From a virus (Duplodnaviria > Heunggongvirae > Uroviricota > Caudoviricetes), in the IMG/VR virus record IMGVR_UViG_3300042905_002309, positions 233,278-248,016 of that record: DNA of 14,739 nt. The stretch is one strand, 5' to 3'. Made by a program: the position numbers and the translations under genes. Of the stretch, positions 1,218-14,739 are shown piece after piece. Within the stretch, counting starts at the first letter, position 1; every line of letters starts with the position of its first letter. A model generated the notes under the pieces. That model was not told the DNA's origin and ran no database searches. It saw only the letters and a program-made list of their open reading frames with translations.

Positions 1218-1245
1218 ATGTTAGCATAAAAGTATGATTTGTCAA
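1218..1245 (-). promoter_or_regulatory. Sigma70-like promoter, probably giving a leaderless transcript
   Basis: TTGACA (1245-1240), 16-nt spacer ending TGc, TAACAT (1223-1218), then 6 nt to the ATG at 1211; no SD present. Confidence 0.6.
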
Positions 1246-1248
1246 CAA

Positions 1249-2127
1249 TTAAGTTTTTATGCAATATTTGATAACAGCATAAGGTTGTAGGTTGTTATGT
1301 GCCACACTTCCACCTTGGGATGCAATTCCTACTGAAACAGAGCCACTATAGGAATGGGTGTGGGAATCACCAGTAGTTGCAATTTCACTTGAATTAAAAG
1401 AACTACCAGCCGAAGTTCCTCTTTTAGTATTAGAAGAAACGTTATCACCACCTGCACCACCACTATCAGTCGTTCCACTAAAAGAACCACTTGCGGCACC
1501 ACCATGATTATGTGATGGTATTTCTGTTACACCTAATGTATGTGTATTTTCACCACCTGTTTTAGCAATGGCATTAAACTCAGTTTGGGATGCGTCATAT
1601 TGCACTAATGTTTTACCATTAAGATTTGGAACATTGAATGTGTTTATATCAACATTACCCCAAGTTGTTCCTATGGCTAAAAAGAGTGTGTTATAAGTAG
1701 TCCTACTCAGAGAGCTACCATCACAAGATATCCAGCCTACGGGTGCTGTAGCCATTGCAAACGGCATTATAGCACCAGCAGGTACATAATTGGCACCAGA
1801 TAACGTTATAATATTACCCGACATTGTATTAACTTCTGTGGATAAAGTAATAACATTAGAGGATAACGTACTAACATTGGATGTAAGTATATTAAAATCC
1901 GTTAAATTAGTTTTACCATCCAACTTATCTTTCAAATCTAATTGATAGTCAATATTACCACCAACGATATTACCCCATTTTGTAAAACTTGTTGCACTAG
2001 TAGGCCATGTTGTAACCGTGGAACCATTAAGCGTCAATTTACCAATATTATCACTAAACCCATTTATAATTAATTCTTGATGATAAGTTTTTTGTCTAAA
2101 TTGTGTTTGTTTATTGTTAATATCCAT
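1249..2127 (-). CDS. Phage tail-collar domain fibre protein (short tail fibre / microcystin-dependent-protein-like)
   Basis: GAIMPFAMATAPVGWISCDGSSLSRTTYNTLFLAIGTTWG...FNVPNL collar signature; GGENTHTL..EIPSHNH and AHNNLQPYAVIKYCIK C-terminal signature; heptad coiled coil (TSNVSTL SSNVITL STEVNTM SGNIITL) before the collar. Start uncertain (no clear SD). Confidence 0.92.
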   Translation of the reverse strand: MDINNKQTQFRQKTYHQELIINGFSDNIGKLTLNGSTVTTWPTSATSFTKWGNIVGGNIDYQLDLKDKLDGKTNLTDFNILTSNVSTLSSNVITLSTEVNTMSGNIITLSGANYVPAGAIMPFAMATAPVGWISCDGSSLSRTTYNTLFLAIGTTWGNVDINTFNVPNLNGKTLVQYDASQTEFNAIAKTGGENTHTLGVTEIPSHNHGGAASGSFSGTTDSGGAGGDNVSSNTKRGTSAGSSFNSSEIATTGDSHTHSYSGSVSVGIASQGGSVAHNNLQPYAVIKYCIKT

Positions 2128-2151: not shown

Positions 2152-2940
2152 TTAAGCCGTTAAGATATCGTCTTTAAATTTACCGTGTTCATCACCAGTT
2201 TTACAATCAAGTTCAGGTTTCTGATCGTATCCACCTAAACCTAACAATTCTGTGGTACGAAGCATTAAATCTTCATAAGTTCCCATAGGACGTTCATCCA
2301 TAGCTTTCATAAAATAATGACTAAATGCACCACAATGTTGACCATCGATAAAAGCATCAGCACTTGTCTGATTACTTCGACACGCTGCCAATAGAATACC
2401 TTTATAGCTATCACCAGATACTACTAATGGATTAACTACCGGATTAGTGTTAAATCCAAATAATTTAGTTTCTTTCAGTTCAGTATTTACGATATAACGA
2501 GGACGTTCACCTGCATACCATAAATCACGTAAAGAACCACCAGCATGACAACAATCACTCCACTGTATCCATTTTACACCATCTTCTAGTTCGTTCATTA
2601 TTGCTGCCATATAATCATCTCTAATTACGTGTGCATCACTACCATCAAAATCGTCAGGACAATAACATTCATCATATCCCATTTTATCACTAGAACGCAT
2701 AGTTGTACCGTGTCCTGAATACATACTGAAAATCACATCACCACTTTTGGCTTTTTTCGCAATACCACGTAAAGCGTCTTTCCAATTTCCAGTTGTTAAA
2801 TCACTATCTCTAAGATCGGTAAAAATTTCGACACCGATTTTTTCTAGACGTTCACGCATAAGTGTTACATCTGTAATACATCCTGCTAGTTGATTTGCTG
2901 TATTTACATAATTTGAAGCTGTCAAAAGTGCATATTTCAT
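2152..2940 (-). CDS. Metacaspase / caspase-family cysteine protease (peptidase C14), p20+p10, no prodomain
   Basis: ALL...NY...NQLAGCITD, YSGHG (His77), DECYCPDD, IRDD, SDCCHAG (Cys131), LLAACRSNQTSAD, GAFS, QKPEL follow type I metacaspase motifs in order; AAGGA SD. Confidence 0.93.
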   Translation of the reverse strand: MKYALLTASNYVNTANQLAGCITDVTLMRERLEKIGVEIFTDLRDSDLTTGNWKDALRGIAKKAKSGDVIFSMYSGHGTTMRSSDKMGYDECYCPDDFDGSDAHVIRDDYMAAIMNELEDGVKWIQWSDCCHAGGSLRDLWYAGERPRYIVNTELKETKLFGFNTNPVVNPLVVSGDSYKGILLAACRSNQTSADAFIDGQHCGAFSHYFMKAMDERPMGTYEDLMLRTTELLGLGGYDQKPELDCKTGDEHGKFKDDILTA

Positions 2941-2951
2941 ATTTATTTCCT

Positions 2952-3518
2952 TTAAGGTGTTGCAGGTGGAGGGGGATTATCTACATCAGTATTGTTATTA
3001 TCCGAATTTACATTTAACACAGTTGTTCCACCACCACTACCACCTGCATTAACTGTTGTATTATTTCCATCTGAATTAACATTTACAGCAGTAGTCCCAT
3101 CACCATTATTAACTGTAACATTAGTTTCTTCTTTACTATTACTGCTATCGAATACTTTTACGGCTCCGTATACAATTGTTGTCCATAAACCTGCATCACC
3201 TAAAAAGGCAAAAGTAGATGAAACAGGTGCTTCTTTAAATGTTCTGAATCCACTCCAAGTATCGGGATTTAATAAATCTACAGCAACAAAAGCACCCTTT
3301 AAGTCTTGTGTAGGAATAATTCTAACTACACTTCTAGGTGACACACCAGCATTCAATGCTCTTATTTGGTCTGGATTATTTCTTGCGATAATCTGTTCTT
3401 GAATTGCGTTATCTTTCACTCTACTGGCATTATATGACGAAATTGGCATAAGAACTGCACAACCAGACATATAAATCATACCTAAACCCAACATTAAACT
3501 TACTAATACATTTTTCAT
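2952..3518 (-). CDS. Putative lipoprotein with internal hydrophobic segment and Asn/Gly/Thr-rich repeat tail
   Basis: MKNVLVSLMLGLGMIYMSG-C20 lipobox-like signal; hydrophobic aa ~99-123; ~10-aa repeats aa 132-181; PPPPATP end; AAGGA SD. Confidence 0.8.
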   Translation of the reverse strand: MKNVLVSLMLGLGMIYMSGCAVLMPISSYNASRVKDNAIQEQIIARNNPDQIRALNAGVSPRSVVRIIPTQDLKGAFVAVDLLNPDTWSGFRTFKEAPVSSTFAFLGDAGLWTTIVYGAVKVFDSSNSKEETNVTVNNGDGTTAVNVNSDGNNTTVNAGGSGGGTTVLNVNSDNNNTDVDNPPPPATP

Positions 3519-3537
3519 AGTTTTCTTCCTTTATAAT

Positions 3538-3565
3538 GATTTATCAAATTCATTCGAAATGTCAA
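3538..3565 (-). promoter_or_regulatory. Sigma70-like promoter upstream of the lipoprotein-metacaspase pair
   Basis: TTGACA (3565-3560), 13 nt, TGa, TAAATC in the 48-nt intergenic gap; same spacing as the 1218-1245 promoter; -10 is imperfect. Confidence 0.5.
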
Positions 3566-3566
3566 G

Positions 3567-4124: not shown

Positions 4125-4132
4125 TATTTATA
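4125..4132 (-). promoter_or_regulatory. T4-late-like promoter box TATAAATA
   Basis: Exact match in intergenic DNA 19 nt upstream of the ATG at 4106. Confidence 0.6.
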
Positions 4133-4188: not shown

Positions 4189-7100
4189 TTAATAAACAAT
4201 CTGACCAGACCACCAATTACCATTATTGCCATTTAACTGAGCACCACCACCAGCTATATTTGCAAAAATTTCATAATAGTCAGCGGCGTTAGTCGTTATG
4301 TCAACAAATGAATACCCATGTCCTAGTTCTTCACCCAAGTTGGTTGTTCTTTTAGAAAACACGGTACATTTTAAACCGCCATTTTTGTAAACATAAATAT
4401 ATGCTATAGAATTGTTAGCCATATCTACATTAAGATTACCAGATATTCTTATCATAACATTTGAAACACCGGGTATCCATCTTGCCACCGAATTAGAATA
4501 CGTTCCACCAACATTCAAGGTGTTATTCGTATATAAAACCTTATCTGTTGTACCACCACCAAATGTCTGTATTGCCCCACCAACATTCGCAAAGAATTTT
4601 CTTGATATTGCAACATTATTCCAAGATTGAGTATTAGACTCAATAATTGCAATTCTATTTGTTGCAGATGTCACTTGACCTTGTAAATTGGTTTCAGCTA
4701 CTATAGCTCTATTTGTTTCTATGTTAATTCTGTTTGAAAGATTAGTCTCAGCTACATACGCACGATTAGTCTCTATATTAATTCTGTTACTTAAATTAGT
4801 CTCAGCAATATAAGCACGATTTGTCTCAGCATTAATTGAATTATTGAGATTGGTATAATTGTCAATAATTGCATTTGTCAACCCTGCTTCGGCAATTATA
4901 GCTCTGTTTGTTTCTATGTTAATTCTGTTTGAAAGATTAGTCTCAGCTACATACGCACGATTAGTCTCTATATTAATTCTGTTACTTAAATTAGTCTCAG
5001 CAACATACGCTCTATTTGTCTCTGCAACTAAGTTAGAAGCAGTTGCATAGTACGATGGAATTTGATCACCTAATACATCAGCAGGAAAACGATTAACAAT
5101 AATCGTGCCATTTGTAGAACTGAAACCACACCATCCAATTTGCTTTGTAACAAATGGAGGTAGTGGAGGTACGTTAGTAAACCCACCCGCTGTAGTTGCA
5201 CTAAGATATAATGGTGTACCTGCAATGTACATAGATGTATCAATAGGGGTTGCCTCTGTTGTTCCAATTGCCATAACATGAGCCTTGGCACCAGCAGGAA
5301 CACCATTTTGAGTATTAATAATACCAAGCACTAGTGACTGATCACCCAAAATACAGGTAGCACGTTTGATGTTCTGTAAATGGTTGGTAGAACCGGGAGT
5401 AATGCTTACAACTTCTCCGGGCATCAAAGTATTAGTTTCGGTGTTGTACCCAAGGAAAACTGAATCACGACAAATTCTGAATTTTGTGCCAGTTGAGTCT
5501 ATGTAATAAGGTTGCTCCAATCCAGTAGTATTATCAAGATAAATCTTTATATGACCAACACTAGGTAAATTATAAGTGATATCGTTCAAACTATTAGGTG
5601 TAAACATATCAAGTGCTCCACCTAAAATTATATCACCATTTTGATGCGCTGTATTGATATAATAACTACCATCAGAACCTTCAGCCGTATAACGTTTTGG
5701 ATAATAGTTGAAGAAATTCTTCTGAATTATCTCAGTGTCGTATATGCGAATATTGTCGTTAGTTGTAGTAGCCGCACCAAACCATATGTTAGATGATGAA
5801 CCACTTATAACTCGTACATGATTATTTCTAATTATAGCAACATTCTCACCTGTTCCATCTTTTGCAAACGCCATAAATAAATTACAATTGTTTGTTTCGT
5901 CCATGTATAATCTTGTAGCATTACCCATTGACAACGTACTGCCAACTGCGTTGTCATGTGAAACTAGTTTAATTTTGTTGTTATGCATGTCATTACCGTG
6001 GTTTATAATGATATTGAAATTACCCGCAATACATTCATTAATACAGGCAGTGTCCGTATTATCATAGGTATGCATCAAACTGATCTCATCATTAGTATCA
6101 GTACAATTTAGAATAGACGAAGGAGCAAATGCAGTAAATGTGCTCAATCCTTGGTTATTTGTATCTGTTGTGTGTGCAAAGATAGAAACGTGGTCAACCG
6201 AACCATTAGTAGTTAAAATATTCAACTCATGATATGTCGTTCCATAATCTTCTACCAGTCCTCTTTTAATTAATACAACAGATTTTTCTGAAACTGTATT
6301 ATCATAATTTGCTCTCAACCAGCATGATCGTATTCCTGCATAAGCATCGTCAGCACCAGCATTAATAACAATAGATGGTTCATTATGAGAGAATACAGAC
6401 AACTTCGCTATTTCTGAACCACTAATATCCATATAATTAGTAGGATAGTATATAGCACCAATAATAATACAGCCTTGTATGTCTGCACCTTCTAGTGATA
6501 CATTCTCTTTCATTATGATGTTTGTACCGTTTAAATCATAAACACCGGGGCTAAGTAGAACAATGTATCTGTTGGTATCATTCGCAGCGGCATTAATGGC
6601 GGCTTGAATTGTCTTGAAAGGTAAGGTAGAACTATGCAATTCTGCGGTGGCATCATTACCATTAGGGTCAACGTATGCCTTACCTGAATTCATATTATTG
6701 ATTTTTGAATCAACGTAAAGTTTATTAACAACTTGATCGTCATTAGAAGGTAAGCCAGTAAGACCATCTATAAAATAACCACCAGAATTTGGACTCTGTG
6801 CTAATATTTGTGTTAATGAGGGAATTGCACCAGACCCACCACCAGAAGAAGTTGAAACATTACCTCTTTGGATTATCAATCTTCTATCAATCCATGAATC
6901 CGCAGATGTTCTTAAATTAGTATCACCACCCATGAAAATATAAGCAGTACAACGAGGAATATATGGAGCAAACCCCGGAGGCATATCTGGATCAGCACCA
7001 GCAAGAGCATCAGCGTAATTTGTATATGATGCTTGTGGATACATGTATGCCATTTGTTTTGAATTAGCAGCAGAAAATAGCAAACCACGATACCAGTTAC

Positions 7101-7968
7101 TCTCAACACAAGAAACAAGATTACTACCATTATCCCATTGATCTACAGGTAAATTACTAGCTAACCCAGTTACCCACATATCAGTATTTGTTCTATATAT
7201 AGGGATTAAGAATTTTCCAAGAGCCACATTATATTCAGTTAAATTTTTAGAAGGATGGGTATTAATCTCTATCATATTATGGATTTCAGTACCAGCGGTT
7301 TGTATGATAGCATTTAAATTGTAATTTGTATAATTAAGTGGACTGAAATTTAATCCATCTACAATTAACGAAGGGAAGATTTTACGGTGTGCATTATCCA
7401 TTCTCAAAGGCATTTCACCCATGGGAACAGTATCACCAACATGAAGAATTCTGCCTTGAGCACATGAAACAGTTACAACTGGAATAGTATTTTCGATATC
7501 AGATAAAGTGTTTACTGTCCATTGCATTTCATATGGATTGTTTACTCTCCAATATCCATAATTTACCCTGTTGTCGGTAAGTGTGTTACTTCCTGCAACC
7601 ATATGATAATATCCATGTATAGGAGAATAAACATCACCAGCAGTCCATGCAAACTCCAAACTAGGTAGAACTGCTTGTGTATAGGTAAATACTGGATAAT
7701 CTCTTGTAACTCCACGTGCAGCGGAATCTGCTAAAAATCTATCCAAATTGTAACCACCTAATGCTCCAACTTGTCTAATACCTTCTGATCCTAGTGTGGT
7801 AGATTGTAGATCATTAGTGTCTACTTTTTTAGATACTTCTACTGTAAGGTTGCTAACTTGTTCTACTACAATAGGTAAATCTACCACAGATGGTGTCATT
7901 GTAGAACCACCAAAACTGTTTAAAGAAAGAGCTAATACGGCTAATAGTTTGAATAATTGTTTTTTCAT
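4189..7968 (-). CDS. 1259-aa multi-domain fibre/adhesin: Sec-like signal peptide, beta-helix (pectate-lyase-like) region, coiled-coil repeats, C-terminal C1q-like head
   Basis: MKKQLFKLLAVLALSLNSFG N-terminus; DDQVVNKLYVD fibre motif; YVDPNGND...PFKTIQAAINAA...VLLSPGVY beta-helix cap at aa ~430; ETNRAxxAETNL repeats; C-terminal FFA..Q..KVLY..N.GGTY..RWIPG..IYVYKNG..DYYEIFA..WSG pattern of C1q-like domains; AAGGAG SD. Confidence 0.8.
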   Translation of the reverse strand: MKKQLFKLLAVLALSLNSFGGSTMTPSVVDLPIVVEQVSNLTVEVSKKVDTNDLQSTTLGSEGIRQVGALGGYNLDRFLADSAARGVTRDYPVFTYTQAVLPSLEFAWTAGDVYSPIHGYYHMVAGSNTLTDNRVNYGYWRVNNPYEMQWTVNTLSDIENTIPVVTVSCAQGRILHVGDTVPMGEMPLRMDNAHRKIFPSLIVDGLNFSPLNYTNYNLNAIIQTAGTEIHNMIEINTHPSKNLTEYNVALGKFLIPIYRTNTDMWVTGLASNLPVDQWDNGSNLVSCVESNWYRGLLFSAANSKQMAYMYPQASYTNYADALAGADPDMPPGFAPYIPRCTAYIFMGGDTNLRTSADSWIDRRLIIQRGNVSTSSGGGSGAIPSLTQILAQSPNSGGYFIDGLTGLPSNDDQVVNKLYVDSKINNMNSGKAYVDPNGNDATAELHSSTLPFKTIQAAINAAANDTNRYIVLLSPGVYDLNGTNIIMKENVSLEGADIQGCIIIGAIYYPTNYMDISGSEIAKLSVFSHNEPSIVINAGADDAYAGIRSCWLRANYDNTVSEKSVVLIKRGLVEDYGTTYHELNILTTNGSVDHVSIFAHTTDTNNQGLSTFTAFAPSSILNCTDTNDEISLMHTYDNTDTACINECIAGNFNIIINHGNDMHNNKIKLVSHDNAVGSTLSMGNATRLYMDETNNCNLFMAFAKDGTGENVAIIRNNHVRVISGSSSNIWFGAATTTNDNIRIYDTEIIQKNFFNYYPKRYTAEGSDGSYYINTAHQNGDIILGGALDMFTPNSLNDITYNLPSVGHIKIYLDNTTGLEQPYYIDSTGTKFRICRDSVFLGYNTETNTLMPGEVVSITPGSTNHLQNIKRATCILGDQSLVLGIINTQNGVPAGAKAHVMAIGTTEATPIDTSMYIAGTPLYLSATTAGGFTNVPPLPPFVTKQIGWCGFSSTNGTIIVNRFPADVLGDQIPSYYATASNLVAETNRAYVAETNLSNRINIETNRAYVAETNLSNRINIETNRAIIAEAGLTNAIIDNYTNLNNSINAETNRAYIAETNLSNRINIETNRAYVAETNLSNRINIETNRAIVAETNLQGQVTSATNRIAIIESNTQSWNNVAISRKFFANVGGAIQTFGGGTTDKVLYTNNTLNVGGTYSNSVARWIPGVSNVMIRISGNLNVDMANNSIAYIYVYKNGGLKCTVFSKRTTNLGEELGHGYSFVDITTNAADYYEIFANIAGGGAQLNGNNGNWWSGQIVY
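4712..5003. repeat. 97-bp perfect direct repeat (4712-4808 and 4907-5003, offset 195 nt = 65 codons)
   Basis: Compared base by base; encodes the AETNLSNRINIETNRAYVAETNLSNRINIETN block twice. Confidence 0.9.
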
Positions 7969-12454: not shown

Positions 12455-12850
12455 ATTTACTCCACGCTGATTCCTGTTAAAACTCCGCCGACATACGTAA
12501 ATGTCTTTGTCTTGTAGACGCCCGTCCCTGTGATGCTCGCTAGCGTACCATCTGGATTATACGCCATGGTACGCACTCCATACGCTGTTGTGGTCGTATG
12601 CAGTGTTCCATCAGGGTTATAGGCGTACGTACCCGCTTCCTGGTCTCCAGTGTTCGTCCCCGTCAGGTTGGACGCCTCCACGATATCGAATTTTACTACA
12701 TTAGCCATAGATGCCTCCTACCGATTAAATGATTCTATTAGTTTGTTGGTTATACCGCTGGACGTTACATGATATACATAACTCGTCGGCCCGCTGTCTG
12801 ATATGATCAGAAATCCGGTTCCTTCTATCAAGGTATTCGAGCCTCCACCA
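12455..12850. other. Second GC-elevated segment (83-aa gene and probably the last ~40 codons of the upstream fibre gene)
   Basis: Spot counts 53% (12481), 57% (12601), 48% (12781) but 33% (12721); right boundary approximate. Confidence 0.6.
12457..12708 (-). CDS. 83-aa protein with two YD/RHS-like repeats (YAYNPDGTL, MAYNPDGTL)
   Basis: AGGAGG SD; GC-rich codons; KTKTFTYVGGVLTGI tail. Confidence 0.75.
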   Translation of the reverse strand: MANVVKFDIVEASNLTGTNTGDQEAGTYAYNPDGTLHTTTTAYGVRTMAYNPDGTLASITGTGVYKTKTFTYVGGVLTGISVE

Positions 12851-13839
12851 GCTATAGTGAAAATAGGATTATCAACTATATTAGACGTTACGTTATTAAT
12901 GGTAATTGTAACACCTTCTAATGCGAAGATTCTATTTGTAGCAGATGATACTTGACCTTGTAAATTAGTCTCAGCAGAAATTGCACGATTGGTTTCTATG
13001 TCAATTCTGGCTGATAGATTCGTTTCAGCACTATTTGCACGATTTGTCTCCACATACAACAATTGTAATACGTTTGTGTAATATAGGAATGTTTGATTAG
13101 AATTGATTAAAATCTGATCCGAAAGATTAGTAAAGTATTGATATGTCAAATTCGAATTAACATCTATCAAATACCCTAAATTGGTACTATAGTTATAGAA
13201 GTAATTGGACGTAATACCTATCTTCAAATCTAAATCATATTCAGCATTAGTAGCTCTTTGATATTCGGCTGTTATTTGACCTTGTAAATTTGTATTGACA
13301 CTCTCTATACGATTAGATAAACTGTTGATACTATTTGTAATACTTTTTGACGCATAGCTATTTGTTTGACTTTCTAAGGTTACTACTCTGTTAGAAACGT
13401 CATTAAAACTATTTGAACTAACTTCTCCACCAGTTACAGTAAAATTAAGGTTGCTAGAAAGTTGTTGCGTTACACCATTAATTGTTACGGTTGTATTCGT
13501 GCTGACTTTACTATTAACGTCATTTGTAATACTTTTTGACGCATAGCTATTTGTTTGACTTTCTAAGGTTACTACTCTGTTAGAAAGCATATTAAGACTA
13601 TACAAACTTGCATAAGAATTAGTCTGAGCTTCTAGTGTATTCACTCTAACCGTTAAATTAGCAACATCATTACTAATTGTCGTGAGGTTTAAATTAGTAT
13701 CCACCAGAGGCACACCAAAATAGGTAGGCATCACACGATAATCAACCCAATGATTAACGGTTTCCGCTGGACCAGCACCAAATGTACTAAAAATTGGCAA
13801 TGTTAATAGTAAATAGATCGATAAAAGAAATTTTTTCAT
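12718..13839 (-). CDS. 373-aa coiled-coil fibre-like protein with Sec-like signal peptide; partial paralog of the 1259-aa protein
   Basis: MKKFLLSIYLLLTLPIFSTFG N-terminus; long Asn/Thr-rich heptads; two TxTINxVT...N..FT..GG motifs; ETNRANSAETNLSARIDIETNRAISAETNLQGQVSSATNRI matches the 1259-aa protein; AAGGAG SD. Confidence 0.85.
   Translation of the reverse strand: MKKFLLSIYLLLTLPIFSTFGAGPAETVNHWVDYRVMPTYFGVPLVDTNLNLTTISNDVANLTVRVNTLEAQTNSYASLYSLNMLSNRVVTLESQTNSYASKSITNDVNSKVSTNTTVTINGVTQQLSSNLNFTVTGGEVSSNSFNDVSNRVVTLESQTNSYASKSITNSINSLSNRIESVNTNLQGQITAEYQRATNAEYDLDLKIGITSNYFYNYSTNLGYLIDVNSNLTYQYFTNLSDQILINSNQTFLYYTNVLQLLYVETNRANSAETNLSARIDIETNRAISAETNLQGQVSSATNRIFALEGVTITINNVTSNIVDNPIFTIAGGGSNTLIEGTGFLIISDSGPTSYVYHVTSSGITNKLIESFNR
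13333..13586. repeat. 65-bp perfect direct repeat (13333-13397 and 13522-13586, offset 189 nt = 63 codons)
   Basis: Compared base by base; encodes SNRVVTLESQTNSYASKSITN twice. Confidence 0.9.
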
Positions 13840-13970: not shown

Positions 13971-14739
13971 TTAAACCATCCCGATAATTGAACCATTAAT
14001 TCCACCACCCGATTTTAATGTTCCTGTCAATCTTGCATTAATCCCATAAGCAACACCTTCTTTAACTTCACTGGCAGGATTTTCAACTAATGGAACTATT
14101 GCAATCGGGTAAGCAAATCCTTCATATCCAGTTGTTCCAGATAATGTGAAAAATGCCGATATAGTCATATAAGCAAAAACATCACCAAGCGTGGGGGCAT
14201 TACCTTTAAACCAACATGATGTAAAACCAGTACAATTGGAAAATGCACCTTCATCAATACTTGTAACAGAATTTCCAATTGTTAAATTTCCTGTAAAACC
14301 AGAACAACTACTAAATGCATAATCACCAATACTTGTTACTGAATCAGGAATTGTTAAACTTCCTGTAAAACCAGAACAACCATAAAATGCATAATCACCA
14401 ATACTTGTAACAGAACTACCAATTGTTAAACTTCCTGTAAAACCAGTACACTGATAAAATGCAGCTTCACCAATACTTGTAACCGAATTAGGAATTGTTA
14501 AATTACCCGTAAAACTAGAACAACCATTAAATGCAGATTCACCAATACTTATTACAGAACTTCCAATTGTTAAACTTCCTGTAAAACCAGTACAACTACC
14601 AAATGCATAAATACCAATACTTGTTACTGAATCAGGAATTGTTAAACTTCCTGTAAAACCATAACATATATTAAATGCATCATTACCAATAGTTGTAACA
14701 GAATTACCGATTGTTAAATCACCTGTAAAACCATAACAG
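13971..14739 (-). CDS. BspA-type (TpLRR / LRR_5) leucine-rich repeat protein, 5'-truncated (at least 255 aa); the 65-aa ORF in the track is only its C-terminus
   Basis: Manual translation open from 14738 to TAA 13973-13971: seven 24-aa repeats FTG(S/N/D)LTI(P/G)xSVTSIGxxAFxxCxG, cap FTSCWFKGNAPTLG..VF, then PASEVKEGVAYG...LTGTL tail. Confidence 0.92.
   Translation of the reverse strand, partial: CYGFTGDLTIGNSVTTIGNDAFNICYGFTGSLTIPDSVTSIGIYAFGSCTGFTGSLTIGSSVISIGESAFNGCSSFTGNLTIPNSVTSIGEAAFYQCTGFTGSLTIGSSVTSIGDYAFYGCSGFTGSLTIPDSVTSIGDYAFSSCSGFTGNLTIGNSVTSIDEGAFSNCTGFTSCWFKGNAPTLGDVFAYMTISAFFTLSGTTGYEGFAYPIAIVPLVENPASEVKEGVAYGINARLTGTLKSGGGINGSIIGMV
14222..14739. repeat. 72-bp tandem coding repeats of the LRR gene
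   Basis: 25-bp block AATTGTTAAACTTCCTGTAAAACCA identical at 14349, 14421, 14565, 14637; 49-bp identity between 14325 and 14613 (offset 288). Confidence 0.92.

Follow-up and report, generated by a model that had tools for sequence, protein, structure and literature searches.

Bacterial caspase-family proteases are generally viewed as host-side enzymes of cell death and defence; to our knowledge, the metacaspases that viruses encode have been listed in surveys, with no role shown for any of them. Here we analyse a metacaspase gene of a tailed phage, together with the lipoprotein gene and the membrane-protein gene that lead up to it, on a stretch of 14,739 nucleotides that we call the window throughout. 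The window is the final 14.7 kb (positions 233278-248016) of the virus record IMGVR_UViG_3300042905_002309, which has 248,016 bp at 34% G+C, is rated complete by CheckV and is classed as linear by IMG/VR. All long open reading frames (ORFs) of the window lie on its minus strand, in the order fibre-like and structural proteins, a fibre-like protein of 1259 amino acids (aa), a 179-aa membrane protein, the lipoprotein, the metacaspase, a tail-collar fibre and two small genes.

Several described systems share features with this locus. Gasdermin-protease operons place the gene of a membrane-acting protein directly before that of a dedicated protease, which is a Peptidase_C14 or a subtilase depending on the system (bioRxiv 10.1101/2021.06.07.447441). 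The MEROPS C14B metacaspases—yeast Yca1 (4f6o), Trypanosoma brucei MCA2 (4af8) and Arabidopsis MC4 and MC9—and the bacterial single-domain protein GSU0716 (3bij) are built around a His/Cys dyad in SxHG and DxCHxG contexts and a QTSAD motif. Virus-encoded metacaspases of unknown function have been described for giant viruses (PMC10583209), and a virome survey counts 'metacaspase-1' among auxiliary viral genes (bioRxiv 10.64898/2026.01.21.700432). On the phage side there are receptor-masking exclusion lipoproteins (T5 Llp, and Cor of phi80 and N15) and lysis cassettes of holin, endolysin and spanin. The spanin can also be unimolecular, as is gp11 of phage T1. Our literature search found no paper on a phage metacaspase-lipoprotein pair.

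Our preferred reading, to which we give a probability of roughly 35%, is that the membrane protein, the lipoprotein and the metacaspase make up a three-gene late module with an envelope or lysis-accessory role (Table 1). A late envelope role is favoured because of the late promoter ahead of the three genes, their position after the fibre genes, the company of phospholipase, nuclease and small transmembrane (TM) proteins in relatives, and the exchange of the C14 protease for a subtilase of family S8. The place past the distal fibre genes is the one that holin gene t occupies in T4.

The protease is a stand-alone metacaspase that appears from its sequence to be an intact enzyme, which bears out an earlier note on this DNA that had recognised His77 and Cys131, a p20 and a p10 part, and no prodomain or sensor domain. 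The Pfam family Peptidase_C14 (PF00656) covers residues 2-247 of the 262 with an E value of 8.6e-24 (84.9 bits, cut-off 21.4), and H77, C131, D129 and the p10-type QTSAD (191-195) are kept in all 22 aligned homologues. A profile built from these 22 homologues (A1) finds solved metacaspases with E values of 1e-38 to 4e-51, Yca1 best of all (3.9e-51), and GSU0716 at 6.7e-31, placing the enzyme in the same fold family by sequence. D129 and QTSAD, which bear on a putative acidic S1 pocket of the Arg/Lys-specific kind, line up with Yca1 in the same comparison; because of the QTSAD motif, cleavage after Arg or Lys is implied. The ORF has no prodomain, sensor or extra domain, long linker or signal peptide. 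With the domain filling residues 2-247, a linker of about 40 aa and p20 preceding p10, the enzyme lacks the N-terminal prodomain of type I metacaspases, the long p20-p10 linker of type II and the swapped domains of type III, and we classify it on these features as a new C14B member in minimal form. It also departs from known C14B enzymes in being phage-encoded, and its subclade in having a shortened acidic loop past the catalytic His. Anti-phage defence caspases are marked by a sensor or repeat domain or by a defence island, whereas this enzyme has a single domain and sits among phage structural and accessory genes.

In a FastTree phylogeny of 184 sequences, which included 79 sampled bacterial and archaeal homologues, the window caspase falls in a clade of 24 (support 99) made up of metagenome proteins, proteins of phage-like contigs and of two IMG/VR contigs; none of the 79 cellular homologues lies within it. 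Stand-alone C14 genes are present on 297 IMG/VR contigs, in many contexts and at about 30% identity to the window caspase, and the genes flanking these more distant viral members encode HSP20, XPG/FEN1, SWIB, ubiquitin and giant-virus capsid proteins. Because of these flanking gene types, we regard many of the distant genes as coming from giant viruses or cyanophage-like genomes and as having little bearing on the window's clade. They share with the window caspase a stand-alone, virus-encoded C14 domain of unknown role; they differ in sequence, in their eukaryote-virus or cyanophage-type neighbours and in lacking the lipoprotein pairing described below. IMG/VR scans that used the single caspase and single lipoprotein proteins found nothing. 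Some of the caspases themselves show a membrane theme: an outlier of 33% identity (P0020) carries a hydrophobic segment at its C-terminus, and those of L002 and L098, which have no lipoprotein neighbour, carry Trp-rich N-terminal extensions of about 50 aa.

The lipoprotein belongs to a phage family that has no name. Its N-terminus shows Lys2, a hydrophobic run and MSGC, with Gly19 and Cys20 nearly invariant across 41 family members, and by these lipobox features the protein is a predicted substrate of Lgt and Lsp. The signal peptide and lipobox lead into a helical domain that is conserved (residues 25-96); behind it come the helix 98-124 and a tail rich in Asn, Gly and Thr. A word-index search returned five homologues, all on the contigs of the closest caspase relatives; a full HMMER profile search widened the family to about 39 clusters (at 50% identity) of proteins of 130-190 aa. 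The family alignment (A6) has in common the lipobox, a conserved Gly58, the motif EAP[VI]SS, a hydrophobic stretch with an invariant Asp, and a tail rich in Asn, Gly, Ser, Thr and Asp; in the window protein the Asp is Asp108, within helix 98-124, and the tail holds a single Lys (129). The hydropathy of the helix is moderate (1.18 in the window, 0.85-1.89 across the family), and 65 residues follow it.

Modelling and database comparison give the lipoprotein no relatives of known fold. An AlphaFold2 model made with five sequences was unusable (predicted local distance difference test, pLDDT, 36); with 41 sequences the model reached a pLDDT of 66 and consists of a small helical domain, the long helix 98-124 and a disordered tail. 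Neither Pfam nor PHROG gave a match, and a search of AFDB clusters and BFVD with the 41-sequence model found nothing significant. Complex prediction for the caspase with the mature lipoprotein scored 0.00 with the fold of the partner uncertain, and speaks neither for nor against binding. Searches for family loci with alignment A7 and a DNA pattern yielded no more than a single IMG/VR contig and a single true metagenome locus. Among isolate phages, there was no tblastn match to the lipoprotein, the membrane protein or two other family members, and no megablast match to the window as a whole. The idea that this is the sole lipobox gene of the genome was rejected; two further small lipobox ORFs were seen at G000:C1:55461-55739(-) (92 aa; mature part rich in Pro) and 196441-196713(+) (90 aa), with no adjacent type-II membrane partner of the i-spanin kind evident at either.

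The gene ahead of the lipoprotein encodes a tail-anchored membrane protein. Because basic residues flank its TM helix on the N-terminal side, the bulk of the protein is predicted to be cytoplasmic. The label of an XhlA-like protein, given earlier from sequence inspection, found no support: the protein matches nothing in Pfam or PHROG, no holin or lysis family among them, and PF11031 (T holin) is absent from the genome. It is holin-like in position, promoter and general build (one TM helix) only, and a lead to DUF7201 from the ESM Atlas was not confirmed by a hidden Markov model (HMM). The order fibre, TM protein, lipoprotein recurs in L083 and L186; the TM protein of L083 is a homologue (55% identity), and L186 has a protein of the same build at the same place with no detectable sequence similarity.

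What ties the protease to the lipoprotein is the recurrence of the pair. The closest caspase relatives (68-78% identity) have the same gene order, and BLAST homologues of the lipoprotein are confined to them; caspases at about 55% identity stand, by BLAST, alone in other contexts, and none of 80 IMG/VR caspase loci has a BLAST-detectable lipoprotein homologue. We also took a census in all reading frames, scoring lipobox ORFs within 1.5 kb of the caspase and comparing their density with that in the rest of the same loci. In the window's clade 6 of 9 loci have such a neighbour (0.43 per kb near the caspase versus 0.036 elsewhere), compared with 19 of 79 loci from cellular genomes (0.099 versus 0.035) and 8 of 77 more distant viral loci (0.037 versus 0.016). 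One clade locus (L004) extends only 277 nt upstream of the caspase, which leaves eight of the nine assessable and six of these eight with a lipobox neighbour. Relative to the flanks of the same loci, lipobox genes are enriched about 12-fold beside the clade caspases.

The pairing occurs in four of the six independent arrangements in the clade. The genes are co-directional in the window, in L083 and on the P0002 and P0003 contigs, and convergent in L084, where a 137-aa lipobox gene (family HMM, E 1e-23) lies 86 nt from a caspase of 55% identity (P0005); the latter neighbourhood is unrelated to that of the window and holds exonuclease, SIS and phosphoesterase genes and a 72-aa protein with two TM segments. 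In the third (L003) and fourth (L099 and L100) arrangements, a second, Ala/Ser/Thr-rich lipoprotein family is encoded directly upstream of the clade caspase. Positions 6800-9975 of L003, a 262-kb IMG/VR contig, read lipoprotein, lipoprotein, clade metacaspase, 81-aa lipoprotein and patatin-like phospholipase (PF01734, E 5.8e-15), and in L099 and L100 a non-specific endonuclease (Endonuclease_NS) follows the caspase—with the two-TM protein of L084, company of an envelope or degradative type. In L186-188 the protease itself is swapped: a fibre, a tail-anchored TM protein and a family lipoprotein (40% identity) are followed by a Peptidase_S8 that takes the place of the caspase.

Given four arrangements in a phage-only clade and a subtilase in the caspase slot, the pairing exceeds local synteny. 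The earlier note had held that caspase homologues in random contexts would speak against the pair; this is true of most viral C14 genes, which at about 30% identity and often from giant viruses have no lipoprotein beside them, and the objection therefore stands in part. On the P0002 contig, whose caspase is 78% identical to that of the window, a 180-aa gene with a faint NUMOD3 match lies between the lipoprotein and caspase genes, and is probably a homing endonuclease.

The control signals that had been noted around the pair—an 11-nt gap between lipoprotein and caspase, a TTGACA-N13-TGaTAAATC element in the 48 nt ahead of the lipoprotein, and the late box TATAAATA ahead of the membrane protein—are all present as described. 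The 11-nt spacer is identical in L083, which also has a counterpart of the late box, CATAAATA, at the same place; a late box lies within 80 nt upstream of the start of 18 called genes. No terminator-like site was seen between 2100 and 4200. Generic sigma-70-like sites are not enriched in the window (54, against 59.6 expected from shuffles), and a promoter family of the genome, TTGAC[AT]-N13-TGnTAnnnT, has 32 copies against 2.5 in shuffles, 22 of them no more than 120 nt ahead of a gene in the same orientation. In its -35, spacing and TG, the element preceding the lipoprotein agrees with this family; its -10 ends in C, whereas that of all 32 family members ends in T. L083 keeps TTGAC and ATAAATCATTATAAAGGAAG (TAAATC) while the spacer and the flanking coding sequence have diverged. 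From the fit to the family, the final C and the conservation in L083, the element is probably functional but weak.

Two earlier proposals on expression can be judged against these signals. That the pair has its own sigma70-like promoter is supported insofar as a promoter-like site of the phage's own type precedes the lipoprotein; early timing is not supported, the -10 being without the final T and the late promoter, TATAAATA, being separated from the pair by no terminator. In about 10 copies of the promoter family the -10 hexamer ends exactly 7 nt ahead of the start codon, a spacing that implies mRNAs with no leader or almost none, and one full copy is found in the window at 1218-1245(-), before the gene at 723-1211.

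Table 1. Features of the module, its neighbours in the window, and related loci (window positions unless a locus is named; G000 refers to the genome of the phage)
Feature	Position	Strand	Basis and remarks
Tail-collar fibre gene	1249..2127	-	Pfam Collar E 3.3e-19 and Gp10_C; starts 24 nt past caspase stop
Stand-alone metacaspase, 262 aa	2152..2940	-	Pfam PF00656; p20 (H77/C131), short linker with conserved RPRY, p10-like part (QTSAD)
Spacer of 11 nt, lipoprotein stop to caspase start	2941..2951	-	Read directly; AGGA ribosome-binding site; identical in L083
Lipoprotein, 188 aa, unnamed phage family	2952..3518	-	Lipobox Cys20; 5 close homologues; profile search, 39 clusters
Promoter-like element TTGACA-N13-TG-A-TAAATC	3538..3565	-	Read directly, in 48-nt gap 3519-3566; TTGACA 3565-3560, 13 nt, TG 3546-3545, A, TAAATC 3543-3538
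Tail-anchored membrane protein, 179 aa	3567..4106	-	Hydropathy: coiled-coil-like N-terminal 120 aa, single TM helix (about 122-144)
T4-type late promoter box TATAAATA	4125..4132	-	Read directly; 18 nt before membrane-protein start
Fibre-like protein, 1259 aa (context, upstream of the module)	4189..7968	-	Homologous fibre in L083
Subtilase, 343 aa, in the caspase's place after family lipoprotein	L186:7581-8612 (also L187, L188)		Peptidase_S8 E 3.3e-51; intact Asp/His/Ser motifs; no signal peptide
Hydrolase_2/SleB-like protein, 135 aa	G000:C1:142407-142814		PF07486 E 4.6e-11, above cut-off; PHROG 938 'endolysin'
SLT-like protein, 186 aa, immediately before SleB-like gene	pair spans G000:C1:141814-142814		19 bits, just below cut-off

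Pfam and PHROG scans recognised no muralytic enzyme in the window, in line with the earlier note; the nearest candidates are about 91 kb away, and the window therefore does not hold a cassette of holin, endolysin and spanin. The module resembles such a cassette in having a membrane protein under a late promoter followed by a lipobox protein, and differs from it in the absence of a muralytic gene and of an i-spanin partner, with a protease in the enzyme slot; unlike holins, its TM protein is tail-anchored. The lipoprotein recalls a unimolecular spanin in its predicted N-terminal lipid anchor and later hydrophobic helix, but the helix is weak and carries Asp108, a 65-aa tail follows it, and no endolysin is adjacent. 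The genome as a whole gave no match to T4-type lysozyme, T holin, Amidase_2, Peptidase_M15_4, GH108 or M23. It does encode a SleB-like protein, directly preceded by an SLT-like one (Table 1), and these candidates leave the premise that the caspase stands in for a missing endolysin unsupported. The SLT-like protein has an N-proximal stretch that is Gly/Ala-rich and weakly hydrophobic, possibly of the signal-anchor-release type, and the candidate muralytic pair adjoins genes with MKTFKQF-type leaders and the terminase gene.

If the three genes do form a late envelope module, they would be transcribed together from TATAAATA, with a weak additional promoter before the lipoprotein. The cytoplasmic metacaspase, of Arg/Lys type, would then act at the inner membrane with the membrane proteins, and may clip the coiled-coil domain of the TM protein. 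Alternatively, it may clip the lipoprotein tail at its single conserved Lys, provided that helix 98-124 spans the membrane, or it may be admitted to the envelope upon a membrane breach. As a result, the host envelope would break down more quickly or more fully when infection ends, and the module would be an accessory to one or more muralytic enzymes encoded elsewhere rather than a replacement for them.

A number of observations weigh against this proposal. The protease has no export signal, while the lipoprotein's conserved domain is expected in the periplasm; since the compartments differ, direct contact requires helix 98-124 to be a TM segment, and this helix combines moderate hydropathy with an invariant Asp. 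The promoter-like site before the lipoprotein equally permits early expression. The independent arrangements are few (four of six), and the pairing is not obligate: the clade caspases of L002 and L098 have no lipoprotein neighbour, and the family lipoproteins of L195 and L191 have no protease nearby, that of L195—a small HK97-type phage—being encoded just upstream of the terminase genes. No endolysin was seen beside any clade caspase, lysis enzymes do not figure among the Pfam families most often found around 50 more distant viral caspases, and the TM protein matches no holin family.

Several of these points would also follow if the genes were independent neighbours: a free-standing auxiliary metacaspase, used for host takeover, counter-defence or cytoplasmic processing, next to a separate spanin-like or receptor-masking lipoprotein, in a place by the fibre genes where accessory genes have piled up. 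We regard this as the main rival, albeit somewhat unlikely. It accords with the stand-alone C14 genes on 297 IMG/VR contigs, mostly beside HSP20, XPG, SWIB and giant-virus genes; with L002 and L098, whose solitary caspases run against the strand of the replication, NAD and Apyc1-like genes around them; with the protease-free lipoproteins of L195 and L191; with the homing-endonuclease-like gene that can separate the two; and with their differing predicted compartments. Against it stand a 12-fold local enrichment of lipobox genes, an adjacency that survives inversion into an unrelated neighbourhood (L084), a different protease that follows the same lipoprotein family at this position (L186), and an 11-nt spacer that is invariant between the window and L083. 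A different kind of partnership was put forward in the earlier note, in which an early sensor-protease module serves superinfection exclusion, the killing of rival-infected cells or the cleavage of host defence proteins, with the lipoprotein reporting events at the envelope. The promoter architecture of the lipoprotein site is that of the phage's own sigma-70-type family, with hexamers conserved in L083; clade relatives lie among genes of early type (exonuclease, DNA polymerase, an Apyc1-like anti-defence candidate); the lipoprotein is encoded beside receptor-binding fibre genes, as is Llp of T5; and of the three proteins it is the best conserved between the window and L083 (87%, against 70% for the caspase and 55% for the TM protein). 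We nevertheless hold an early sensor-protease module to be unlikely: the -10 departs from all 32 family members in its final base, a late promoter stands immediately upstream and no terminator intervenes, there is no sensor domain, no likeness to known exclusion proteins in Pfam or PHROG and no PADLOC-type context, and a signal would have to be passed across the membrane. The exclusion lipoproteins Llp and Cor resemble the window protein as small phage lipoproteins encoded by receptor-binding fibre genes, possibly with a sigma-70-type promoter of their own, but they share no sequence similarity with it and are not known to have a partner protease, and the window's family also occurs away from fibre genes (L084, L195).

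Two further explanations give the protease a narrower task, and both strike us as highly improbable. One, also from the earlier note, makes the caspase the lytic enzyme of a holin-spanin-protease cassette that replaces a muralytic endolysin. The cassette-like order of late TM protein, lipoprotein and enzyme, the subtilase in the same slot of L186, and the classical lysis families missing from the genome (T4-type lysozyme, T holin, Amidase_2, M15_4, GH108, M23) would suit it; the SleB-like protein with its SLT-like neighbour weakens it in this strict form, and clade relatives lie outside lysis cassettes. By established enzymology, endopeptidases specific for Lys or Arg do not cut the D-amino-acid cross-links of peptidoglycan. 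The other sees the caspase (or subtilase) as a maturation enzyme that trims the neighbouring fibre proteins, which have odd hydrophobic N-termini. The module does adjoin fibre genes in the window and in L186, but there are none near the clade caspases of L084, L002, L098, L099 and L100, and the collar fibre gene is missing in the closest relative.

Among described systems, the gasdermin-protease operon appears to be the nearest in logic, although the lipoprotein is, by sequence and model, not a gasdermin. The likeness is that of a small lipid-modified membrane protein (in the window, by prediction) encoded before a protease of C14 or subtilase type; the dedicated adjacent protease is a C14 enzyme in the window and in L084 and a Peptidase_S8 in L186-188, echoing the range of proteases in bacterial and fungal operons. 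The window lipoprotein differs in its size (188 aa) and in carrying a Sec/lipobox signal, whereas gasdermins are cytoplasmic and palmitoylated; it has no sequence or fold match to them, being without a Pfam match and with a model of moderate confidence (pLDDT 66) that matches no fold. Gasdermin operons are also host-borne and the window system phage-borne. One could imagine a protease-gated disruption of the membrane, in which a cytoplasmic Asn/Gly-rich tail keeps a bitopic lipoprotein inactive until the metacaspase (or, in the relative, the subtilase) cuts at the one conserved Lys beyond the hydrophobic helix and the envelope breaks down. This would be a functional analogue of caspase-gasdermin killing, assembled from unrelated parts and used by a virus; we rate it as a long shot.

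The surroundings of the module vary. The tail-collar gene is missing downstream of the caspase on the P0002 contig, and we treat it as a variable neighbour outside the module. The 1259-aa fibre-like protein and a second of 373 aa at 12718-13839(-) have signal-peptide-like hydrophobic N-termini and share coiled-coil repeats of ETNRA type; neither has a Pfam match. A BspA-type leucine-rich-repeat (LRR) protein (LRR_5, E 1.4e-39) at 13971-14738(-) is truncated by the end of the record. At the opposite end (genome 1-378, minus strand) lies an ORF start that resembles a signal peptide and may belong to a separate gene; at the end with the LRR protein, the record has probably been circularly permuted or lacks some terminal sequence. 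Near word-for-word copies of the stretch are present in at least 22 lake-water metagenome runs, and two metatranscriptome runs share 0.21 and 0.14 of its sampled words, which is not evidence of expression.

What is new here, and open to test, is a phage-only metacaspase lineage with a recurrent membrane-lipoprotein partner from a nameless family, and a natural exchange of C14 for S8 at one position. The phage is common in lake-water metagenomes, so that the module is ecologically present and no one-off. If the pair does act on the envelope, phage lysis or exclusion would gain a proteolytic step, and viruses would be seen to use caspase-type logic themselves.

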